From IMG/VR virus record IMGVR_UViG_2585427657_000002: DNA of 44,098 nucleotides, one strand, 5' to 3'. Both the position numbers and the translations under genes were made by a program. How positions within the stretch are numbered: position 1 is the first letter of the stretch; every line of letters starts with the position of its first letter. The notes beneath the pieces are model-generated. The model made no database searches. It had not been told where the DNA came from and was given only the letters and a program-made list of their open reading frames with translations. Shown piece by piece: positions 1 to 2,043 of this stretch. The stretch comes from a virus (taxonomy: Duplodnaviria > Heunggongvirae > Uroviricota > Caudoviricetes).

Positions 1-428
1 CTATGCTGTTTTGATATCTACGATAATCCAGTCTTTACCACGATCATCATTGTATCGGTCGGTCATTTTTCTGGATTTATGACCTAACAACTTTTGCGTA
101 TCCAGACCCTGTTCCCGATATAACCGTTCTGACAGAGATCGCTGCTCATGAAATGTGGGCGCAGTTCCTGGCTCCCATTTTATGCCACATTTTTCCCTGG
201 CCTTTTTAAAAGCCGTTGTAAGAGTATTTGCAGACACCTGGTCTCCTCTGTTTGCTTGAGAGGTAGTGTGACGGTAATGGACCAGATATTTACTAACAAC
301 AGCATCCCTGCACTGAGATATAACTTCACGAAGGGTAATATTCAGAGCATCGCATTTCAGGTTAAGCGGAATAGCAAGTTTTGAACCGGTTTTTTCCTGA
401 GTAATGTGCAACATGTCGTCCCAGATAT
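1..428 (-). pseudogene. int: lambda-type tyrosine integrase, C-terminal ~140 codons only
   Basis: ORF 1..414 (-) carries the catalytic C-terminus of lambda-family Int (...PTFHEQRSLSERLYREQ...LLGHKS...DRYNDDRGKDW); the frame runs upstream straight into the IS911 terminus at 429 and no N-terminal part is present elsewhere. Confidence 0.8.
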
Positions 429-458
429 TGAAGTGGTCAACAAAAACTGGCCACCGAG

Positions 459-1277
459 TTAGAGTTTTTTCCAGTATCGATTTTCCGATTCGTTTGGTGG
501 TAACCCACCATTATATTCGTGCGGTCTTAGTGCGCTGTAATATCCAACGATATAGTCCGTTATTGCGTGAGCTGCATCGCTGAAGCTTACATAGCCCGTC
601 GCCGGCACCCATTCGTTCTTCAGACTCCTGAAGAAGCGCTCCATTGGGCTGTTATCCCAGCAGTTTCCACGCCGACTCATACTCTGCCTGATCCGGTATC
701 TCCACAGTAACTGCCGGAACTGCCTGCTCGTATAATGACTGCCTTGATCGCTGTGGAACATCACCCCGACGGGCTTACCACGGGTTTCCCATGCCATTTC
801 CAGTGCTTTCATGGTAAGCCTGCTGTCCGGCGAGAACGACATGGCCCAGCCCACTGGTTTTCTTGCGAACAGGTCGAGAACAACGGCGAGGTACGCCCAG
901 CGCTTACCCGTCCAGATATAGGTCACATCACCGCACCACACCTGATTTGGCTCGGTCACGGCGAACTGCCGTTCAAGGTAGTTAGGGATAGCAACATGTT
1001 CATGACCACCACGTTTATACCGGTAAGTCGGCTGCTGACAGCTGACCAGCCCCAGCTCTTTCATGAGTCTGCCAGCAAGCCAGCGCCCCATCTGGTAGCC
1101 TCTCTGGGTTGCCATTGTGGCGATGCTTCTTGCTCCGGCAGAGCCGTGGCTGATGCCATGCAGTTCAAGTACCTGGCTGCGTAATACAGCCCGTCTGCCG
1201 TCTGGCTTTTCAGGACGGTTTTTCCAGTATTTGTAGCTGCTGCGATGGACCCCGAACACATGGCAGAGAGTGGCCAC
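459..1277 (-). CDS. IS911 transposase OrfB frame (DDE integrase core; made as OrfAB fusion by -1 frameshift)
   Basis: 272-aa ORF with rve-type core (...WCGDVTYI...[10 protein letters not shown]...[12 protein letters not shown]...); overlaps the 3' end of OrfA in the -1 frame. Confidence 0.85.
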
Positions 1278-1303
1278 AGGATAACGCGCCCTGAGTTTCC
1301 CGA

Positions 1304-1606
1304 TTATCGAGAACTGTTCAGGGAGTCTGACATCAAGAGCGCGGTAGCCTTTTTTAATATTTCATTTTCCATTTCAATACGTTGTAGCTTTTTCCTGAGC
1401 TCACGGATTTCAATTTGTTCCGGGGTAATAGGGGAGGCTTTTGGTGTTTTTCCCTGCCGCTCATCACGTAATTGTTTCACCCATCGCGTCATTGTGGAAA
1501 GGCCGACATCCATAGCGCTGGCTGCATCTGCCACGGTGTAATTCTGGTCAACGACCAGTTGAGCGGATTCGCGTTTAAACTCTGCGCTGAAATTTCTTTT
1601 TTTCAT
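1304..1606 (-). CDS. IS911 transposase OrfA (HTH/leucine-zipper part)
   Basis: Starts [21 protein letters not shown]..., ends ...[21 protein letters not shown]; slippery A AAA AAG motif near 1351..1357 on the minus strand, consistent with -1 frameshift into OrfB. Confidence 0.85.
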
Positions 1607-1664
1607 TATGGCACCTGTGTTGTTCTGAGGTGAGCATATCACCTCTGTTCAGGTGGCCAAATTC

Positions 1665-2018
1665 TGGCCACACTCACGTGGGTGGACTGGTATAACAATC
1701 GACGATTGCTGGAAAGGCAGGGCCATACTCCTCCGGCAGAAGCAGAAAAAGCTTATTATGCTTCCATCGGAAACGATGATCTGGCAGCCTGAGTTCACAG
1801 ATAAAACACTCTCCAGGAAACCCGGGGCGGTTCACAGTAAACCACTTCTGGCCACACTCACGTGGGTGGACTGGTATAACAATCGACGATTGCTGGAAAG
1901 GCAGGGCCATACTCCTCCGGCAGAAGCAGAAAAAGCTTATTATGCTTCCATCGGAAACGATGATCTGGCAGCCTGAGTTCACAGATAAAACACTCTCCAG
2001 GAAACCCGGGGCGGTTCA
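1665..2018 (+). repeat. Two tandem copies of a 170-bp IS3-type right-end fragment, separated by 14 bp
   Basis: 1665..1834 and 1849..2018 are identical; each encodes a transposase C-terminus (...LTWVDWYNNRRLLERQGHTPPAEAEKAYYASIGNDDLAA) and ends in ...CCCGGGGCGGTTCA, an IS3-type terminus. Confidence 0.7.
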
Positions 2019-2043
2019 TACAGAGAGCAAAAGAGAAACGCCG

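Follow-up and report, generated by a model that had tools for sequence, protein, structure and literature searches.

Does a lambdoid prophage whose integrase gene runs into an insertion sequence (IS), and whose next phage gene is sieB, record a genuine loss of the DNA in between, or is the arrangement a product of assembly? The question is raised by the left end of IMG/VR record IMGVR_UViG_2585427657_000002, a stretch of 44,098 nucleotides (nt) of caudoviricete DNA to which we refer as the window, and in which an initial annotation made from the letters alone had described an int gene truncated by IS911 with apparent loss of the early-left region from xis to ral. We propose that the window holds the decayed left end of the prophage that is integrated in icd in the Nissle 1917 strain of Escherichia coli (EcN), that the missing DNA was removed by a deletion made by the IS, which is an ISEc52 copy, and that a block of 355 nt beside the IS is likely to be an artefact. 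To this explanation as a whole we assign a probability of about 0.88.

Identity of the locus and its core arrangement

Window positions 1 to 3400 matched 18 complete genomes of Nissle 1917 and its derivatives at 100% identity, and in all 18 of these Nissle-lineage assemblies the order was icd, a partial integrase gene ("missing N-terminus"), an ISEc52 transposase gene, and sieB. We conclude from these matches that the window is the lambdoid prophage that Nissle 1917 carries in icd, and that the region treated here is its decayed left end. This prophage is the "prophage 3" of Bury et al. 2018 (PMC5987069), which is shorter than lambda, and the EcN prophages in that study were not induced by antibiotic or heat. 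Truncation of int at an IS together with loss of the early-left genes is ordinary prophage decay at a locus that was already known; the RefSeq annotation of the Nissle locus already shows a partial integrase beside the IS, and the IS-driven grounding of lambdoid prophages is a well documented phenomenon.

The finding that could have overturned the initial annotation was that the whole order of int fragment, IS, and sieB is an assembly error and that the missing genes lie contiguous with this locus elsewhere. The window does hold features of the kind that such an error leaves behind (single-base insertions, kilobase-scale duplications, and the 355-nt block), but an identical and contiguous icd-int'-ISEc52-sieB order was present in 18 complete assemblies from various laboratories and platforms, and independent short-read contigs stopped at or crossed the identical int-IS junction. 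Two independent Logan contigs crossed this junction, reading ...CCACTTCA/ATATCTGGGACGAC, and the truncated int gene lay near a contig end in two more contigs, one from an NCBI draft and one from an ENA assembly. Because the junction recurs in the 18 complete assemblies and in independent short-read contigs, we conclude that the core arrangement int'-IS-sieB is no assembly error, and we give the contrary view practically no weight.

Truncation of the integrase gene

Read on the minus strand, positions 1 to 428 translate as ...FN/IWDDMLHITQEKTG...DIKTA followed by the stop codon. The statements that only about 140 C-terminal codons of int are present and that the frame runs into the IS end at 429 both held: 141 codons and 2 nt were found, no stop intervenes, and the right inverted repeat (IRR) terminus of ISEc52, TGAAGTGGTCAAC..., begins at 429. 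The fragment belongs to a tyrosine recombinase (Pfam PF00589, E=1.3e-15) and aligns with positions 54-168 of the 172 in the hidden Markov model, whereas the intact Int of strain ATCC 25922, of 380 amino acids (aa), matched PF00589 from position 7 to 168 and in addition PF09003 (E=1.8e-28) and, weakly, PF22022. Neither the PF09003 arm-type DNA-binding domain nor a core-binding domain was detected with Pfam in the window fragment. Its translation keeps the Lys, HxxR, His, and Tyr catalytic residues, and the complete R-K-H-R-H-Y set is broken by the loss of the box-I Arg (TGQR). The break falls within the codon for Asp239, 11 residues past this Arg (TGQRLGD...KFS D/IWDD; context GQRLGDICNLKFSD/IWDDM). 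Window positions 1-428 are 100% identical to int of ATCC 25922 (locus L004, 10790-11217), and the isolated temperate phages ev017, 4A7, and Perceval encode an Int with 99-100% identity to the full-length protein.

A separate lesion of the same integrase gene was seen in an ENA metagenome scaffold (ROBE23-1...scaffold_1287; L010 2290-2345), where TGG is changed to TAG at Trp241, a distance of two codons from the point at which int meets the IS in Nissle, and int is split into open reading frames (ORFs) of 240 and 137 aa. This nonsense mutation is an independent inactivation of the same int in another strain.

Extent of the deletion

Alignment against the related prophages of ATCC 25922 and CFT073, which had been suggested as a check on the initial annotation, fixed the deletion endpoints exactly. 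Relative to ATCC 25922, Nissle lacks L004 positions 11218-20686, or 9,469 bp, of which 8,219 bp is phage DNA when the second, inverted ISEc52 copy of ATCC 25922 is set aside; Nissle also lacks 11 bp (ATTCACCCCTA) to the right of the ATCC 25922 IS site, its right junction being 11 bp nearer sieB. From sieB onward the two sequences are 100% identical. In the Nissle reference the deletion joins int codon 239 to a site lying 23 bp upstream of the ATG of sieB, in a ral-sieB spacer that in CFT073 is free of any IS and reads ...CTCTATTCACCCCTACAGAGAGCAAAAG....

Missing from Nissle are the first 238 codons of int, xis, about 10 small genes of the b region and of ea type, exo, bet, gam, kil, cIII, a DUF2528 gene, and ral. 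As the initial annotation had claimed, xis, exo, bet, gam, kil, cIII, and ral gave no DNA or protein match in the window by blastn or tblastn, and neither did the N-terminal part of int; the deleted ATCC 25922 DNA was also absent from a 49-kb stretch of the Nissle reference, apart from the IS copy within the deleted segment, so that the absence applies to the window and to this stretch only. The prophage was likewise correctly said to be without a recombination module of its own, since exo, bet, and gam lie within the deleted segment, and the next phage gene past the IS proved to be sieB, as stated. The product of the latter, WP_001066176.1 in the Nissle, ATCC 25922, and CFT073 annotations, is by its PF14163 match a member of the SieB family, with a predicted exclusion function. 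Of the early-left genes only N and the oppositely oriented sieB survive, N being the sole gene left on the leftward early (pL) strand between pL and the junction. The coordinates of these features are collected in Table 1.

Table 1. Features at the left end of the window, in window coordinates
Feature	Positions	Strand	Remarks
int 3' fragment	1-428	-	Stop codon at 1-3, then 141 codons and 2 nt of the split Asp239 codon
ISEc52 body (IS3 family, IS911-like)	429-1664	-	IS positions 1250 down to 15; 100% identical in the Nissle reference and in the two ATCC 25922 copies
orfB frame	459-1277	-	rve/DDE integrase core; PF00665 (E=1e-31), PF13683
orfA	1304-1606	-	100 aa; helix-turn-helix (HTH_Tnp_1), PF01527 (E=6.8e-14)
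X1	1665-1835	+	Right end (terminal 170 nt, ...GGGGCGGTTCA) of an IS1203/IS629-like IS3-family element of 1,310 bp, plus 1 nt
Outer tip of the left inverted repeat of ISEc52, displaced	1836-1848	-	13 nt, AGTAAACCACTTC; contiguous with position 1664 in the reference
X2	1849-2019	+	Second copy of the 170-nt IS1203-like end, plus T; differs from X1 in the last base only
Remaining ral-sieB spacer	2020-2043	+	Junction 23 nt upstream of the sieB ATG in the reference
sieB, superinfection exclusion protein B	2044-2625	+	193 aa; first intact phage gene past the junction; PF14163 (E=9.1e-22)
N, antitermination gene	2642-2914	-	PF25694 N_peptide (E=1.5e-32)

Attachment sites and consequences for the prophage

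Both att junctions persist in the Nissle reference as 215-bp duplications of the icd 3' end (L003 1866-2080 and 44827-45041), which are identical at 201/215 positions (93%); neither falls within the window, whose first letters are the int stop codon and whose end comes short of attR. Between the icd stop and the int stop (L003 2091-2133), immediately to the left of window position 1, a TTCCCCAAAAC-type motif was noted three times at a spacing of 12-13 nt, and these copies are candidates for the arm-type Int binding sites of the surviving attL.

As judged from its gene content, the prophage is without Int, Xis, or a Red module of its own. Because the Int remnant is without the arm-binding and core-binding domains and the first catalytic Arg, and because Xis is gone, we infer from established knowledge of lambda that the prophage cannot excise by itself. 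Lost are Red recombination, Gam, Kil, CIII, and Ral; N, the immunity region, and sieB are kept, and transcripts from pL would run through the IS in the sense direction. These changes give a molecular reason for the short, non-inducible lambdoid prophage in the widely used probiotic chassis Nissle 1917, in which immunity and exclusion (cI, sieB) are still provided, and they bear on biosafety arguments over prophage mobilisation. Their scientific weight is small, the locus being one more clean case of IS-associated prophage grounding, with siblings that fix the endpoints to the base.

A 355-nt block at the left end of ISEc52

At positions 1665-2019 the window carries 355 nt in place of 13 nt found in 18/18 complete Nissle-lineage assemblies. 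The reference reads ...CCAAATTCAGTAAACCACTTCA/CAGAGAGC here, its IS ending ...GGCCAAATTCAGTAAACCACTTCA before CAGAGAGC, and the 13-nt form across the ISEc52-sieB junction is ...AAATTCAGTAAACCACTTCACAGAGAGC.... In the window the left inverted repeat (IR) of ISEc52 is broken after ...GGCCAAATTC by X1, which was found only in the window; the outer tip of the IR stands 171 nt away from the IS body, between X1 and X2, and X2 abuts the sieB upstream sequence ACAGAGAGC. An exact direct repeat of 173 nt spans 1662-1834 and 1846-2018. The repeated fragment, X, matches the two CFT073 prophage copies (L006 2200-2369 and 19405-19574) with a single mismatch, and full copies of its source element are annotated as IS1203 family in other genomes; the window holds only the right end, twice, rather than a complete IS with both ends and a transposase gene. 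A remnant ORF of 42 aa in X had no Pfam match. The ATG of X2 is in frame with sieB and creates an ORF at 1942-2625 of 227 aa, with a 34-residue N-terminal extension of SieB that is artificial and occurs only in the window version.

The initial annotation had noted that the IS lacks the outermost 14 bp or so of one IR and had taken this as consistent with a secondary rearrangement. Neither point was supported by comparison with the Nissle genomes: the outer 13 nt are displaced, not lost, the IS is intact in the 18 assemblies, and the displaced structure is unique to the window copy. The IS-X junction occurred in none of 5,426 complete E. coli genomes and had no match in viral, metagenome, or GTDB contigs, the metagenome scan being uninformative because the control, the reference junction, was also unmatched; exact-protein look-ups of two window-specific ORFs gave no match. 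Because the block is absent from the 18 assemblies, and because the window has other error-like differences from the reference, we consider it most likely an artefact of the window's source assembly.

The same absences, from 18/18 Nissle-lineage complete genomes and, for the junction, from the 5,426 genomes and three contig collections, make it unlikely that X1, the tip, and X2 are a real secondary rearrangement private to the sequenced isolate and involving an IS1203-like element and the left end of ISEc52, even though base 2019 (T) fits the IS-free ancestral TACAGAGAGC and not the reference IS tip, and even though IS1203-like elements have inserted right upstream of sieB elsewhere (NCTC11151, FY26). 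A TTC/TGGCCACAC junction, impossible from simple repeat collapse, speaks for such a rearrangement; yet the two fragments share both their internal IS starting position and the TTC before it, a coincidence not predicted by any known transposition pathway, and six C insertions elsewhere in the window shift the frame of a repressor gene that works experimentally. That the block is real in the particular sense that the IS1203-like right end was copied twice into the terminal IR of ISEc52, each time after TTC, is less probable still; if true, it would be an undescribed aberrant interaction, one-ended or template-switching, of two IS3-family elements at the hotspot upstream of sieB.

Origin of the deletion

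The ISEc52 copy of Nissle is flanked by TAT and CAG (TAT/IS/CAG) and has no 3-bp target duplication. A search for such duplications had been proposed along with the initial annotation: none was present at the Nissle IS, whereas perfect ones were found at 11 of 15 distinct ISEc52 copies from the fetched loci, and both ATCC 25922 copies have them (ATT; CAT). Three of the four non-duplicated copies join genes that are not normally contiguous, namely int' and sieB in Nissle, ral and ylcG' in Ec40743, and int' and DUF6387' in NCTC9038. Because ISEc52 usually makes a 3-bp duplication and none is present here, we conclude from the flanks that the IS stands where an IS-associated deletion took place, rather than having simply inserted into int; the missing duplication thus marks a deletion junction and is no argument against membership in IS3 or ISEc52. 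At the other two junctions, the Ec40743 copy (L007 3290-4539) has ral joined to a ylcG fragment beside Q, and the NCTC9038 copy (L015 1951-3200) has a truncated phage integrase joined to a DUF6387 fragment.

Most likely, the deletion was produced by the IS itself. By the route that we favour, one ISEc52 copy would have inserted upstream of sieB, at an IS3-family hotspot, and the same copy would then have made an adjacent deletion leftward into int. A possible though less probable route is that two copies in the same orientation, one in int (TAT) and one upstream of sieB (CAG), underwent RecA-dependent recombination that left a single hybrid copy. This yields the exact flanks TAT/IS/CAG, ATCC 25922 proves that the prophage can carry two ISEc52 copies, IS3-family elements have repeatedly struck the ral-sieB spacer in different strains, and ISEc52 is mobile in EcN; but none of the 5,426 complete genomes covered at least 80% of a query joining ISEc52 to the N-terminal part of int, none of them had ISEc52 at the CAG site beside ral, and two insertions and a recombination are required as against one insertion and one intramolecular event. 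The ISEc52 copies are all identical, so a hybrid signature is not visible.

Several observations weigh against our explanation. Synthetic junction queries found no intermediate among the 5,426 complete genomes: none had ISEc52 at the CAG site with ral present, and none had ISEc52 in int with the N-terminal part kept. Because no intermediate genome was found, we can only infer the order of events. Further, the removed int sequence (CAGAGAATT) and the retained sieB flank (CAGAGAGC) have 6 nt in common, CAGAGA, an identity that a mechanism acting purely from the IS end does not predict. Simple repeat collapse, as said, would not create the TTC/TGGCCACAC junction of the 355-nt block. Finally, because both icd-derived junctions persist, a related phage with the same Int and Xis, whether co-resident or superinfecting, could in principle mobilise the prophage in trans.

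An AGAG-type target preference of ISEc52 was considered as a source of the CAGAGA identity; it was hinted at by 3 of the first 6 copies and vanished when 15 were compared. For a fixed register the chance of six identical nucleotides at both breakpoints is about 1 in 4,096, and the identity would suit a deletion that came first and independently of any IS, by slippage or illegitimate recombination between the CAGAGA in int and its counterpart upstream of sieB, with ISEc52 entering the joint later. An allele of this kind without the IS would read ...CCCAGATATCAGAGAGCAAAAG..., and no IS-free version of the deletion was present among the genomes listed; a later insertion would moreover be expected to carry the 3-bp duplication seen at most ISEc52 copies, and here TAT and CAG flank an IS that lies exactly at the joint. 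We regard this order of events as very improbable and retain insertion followed by adjacent deletion.

The spacer upstream of sieB was seen to be a repeated target of IS3-family elements (L004 20684-21950, L026 4016-4045, hits H68-H71). ISEc52 lies at ATT in ATCC 25922 and at CAG in Nissle, in NCTC11151 this same ATT borders a full IS1203-like element, and FY26 has the same IS1203-like match upstream of sieB; in four other genomes ISEc52 lies at other distances from ral.

Comparison with related prophages

ATCC 25922 carries the same prophage in icd, at the same integration site as in Nissle, with the 380-aa int, xis, small genes, exo, bet, gam, kil, cIII, the DUF2528 gene, and ral, followed by ISEc52 and sieB, and the same genes are found in CFT073, where no IS separates ral from sieB. 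In both strains the 3' part of int and the region from sieB through N-cI-O-P are 100% identical to the Nissle DNA, and the 380-aa Int is identical or 99% identical among these strains and phages ev017, 4A7, Perceval, and PhiR57_1. The siblings differ from Nissle in that int is complete and the genes from exo to ral are retained; ATCC 25922 has an intact xis, CFT073 an xis that an IS1203-like element has split, and Nissle none. Each sibling has undergone decay of its own, ATCC 25922 through its two ISEc52 copies with target duplications, and CFT073 (L006 1060-2369, 5328-7579, 18265-19574) through an IS1203-like element in xis, ISEc10 in an ea22-like gene, and an IS1203-like element between ren and ninB. 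The three strains of sequence type 73 (ST73) thus show three independent paths of IS decay of one prophage.

Integration at the icd 3' end with supply of a replacement icd end is the known paradigm of phage 21 and e14. The Nissle prophage resembles them in its position at the icd 3' end, with int beside the junction, a replacement icd 3' end, and the host copy at the far junction, and differs in its truncated int and absent xis; the likeness is one of integration. Defective lambdoid prophages such as DLP12, Rac, and Qin of K-12 and the Sp prophages of O157 Sakai have lost int/xis and early-left genes via IS insertion or deletion, and keep immunity, exclusion, and cargo genes. The Nissle prophage is like them in having lost int/xis and the early-left region at an IS with immunity and exclusion kept, but its decay is recent and limited, the flanks being 100% identical to functional relatives. 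Its late region looks largely complete by the reference annotation, save for a partial tail-fiber gene.

The ISEc52 element

In the 18 reference assemblies the Nissle IS is intact, with 1,250 bp and both inverted repeats contiguous, whereas in the window copy the left IR is split by 171 nt. The Prokaryotic Genome Annotation Pipeline (PGAP) names it "IS3-like element ISEc52 family transposase". The earlier label IS911 has accordingly to be replaced by that of a related element: the Nissle IS is 100% identical to copies annotated ISEc52 and 94.2% identical to one copy annotated IS911 family, an assignment made by comparison with PGAP-named copies. IS911, an IS3-family element of Shigella dysenteriae, has 1,250 bp, makes 3-bp target duplications, and encodes HTH and rve (DDE) domains in a 100-aa OrfA and a 382-aa OrfAB that arises by a -1 frameshift at A AAA AAG (Chandler laboratory literature). 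ISEc52 shares all of these features, and its termini likewise start TGAAGTGG...; it differs in being curated as a separate element, in its nucleotide identity of about 94%, and in its left IR at positions 9-13. The -1 slippery site of the window copy (A6G) lies at 1349-1355 and gives the 382-aa OrfAB fusion in our reconstruction; the "frameshifted" flag that RefSeq attaches to the ISEc52 transposase is this programmed frameshift. Because the OrfA and OrfAB frames are intact and movement of ISEc52 has been observed in EcN cultures (bioRxiv 10.64898/2026.07.28.741313), the element is potentially active; an ISfinder match to ISEc52 is given in the same preprint.

Other differences between the window and the reference

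Relative to the Nissle reference, the window has six single-C insertions within 110 nt (5104-5213) of the cI-type repressor gene, which split the 231-aa LexA-family repressor into ORFs 4697-5107 and 5201-5404, and, between this gene and the cro-like gene, an extra T in a run of T at 5443. In EcN the repressor has been shown by experiment to work (PMC5987069), and the pattern of C insertions looks like sequencing error. According to one paper, single-nucleotide polymorphisms and small indels separate the first Nissle assembly, CP007799.1, from resequenced wild-type EcN.

The window also carries about 6.5 kb of internal duplications that the reference lacks. Within 11968-23522, the segment 11968-16158 recurs as 16321-20511 and the segment 19928-21358 as 22092-23522, and a 735-nt segment occurs three times; a perfect-type palindrome of 333 nt lies at 16159-16491. 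Because of these kilobase-scale duplications and the palindrome, the window is 6,871 nt longer than the matching reference stretch of 37,227 nt. As the window copy holds features without support in other assemblies of the strain, among them the one behind the supposed loss of the IR tip, any annotation or engineering that builds on it should be verified with CP022686. Another feature not in the reference is a 5-nt duplication (CAGGT CAGGT) at 8078, in a terminator-like hairpin between ren and ninB; this site is the exact position of the IS1203-like insertion in CFT073, which has the target duplication GGT.

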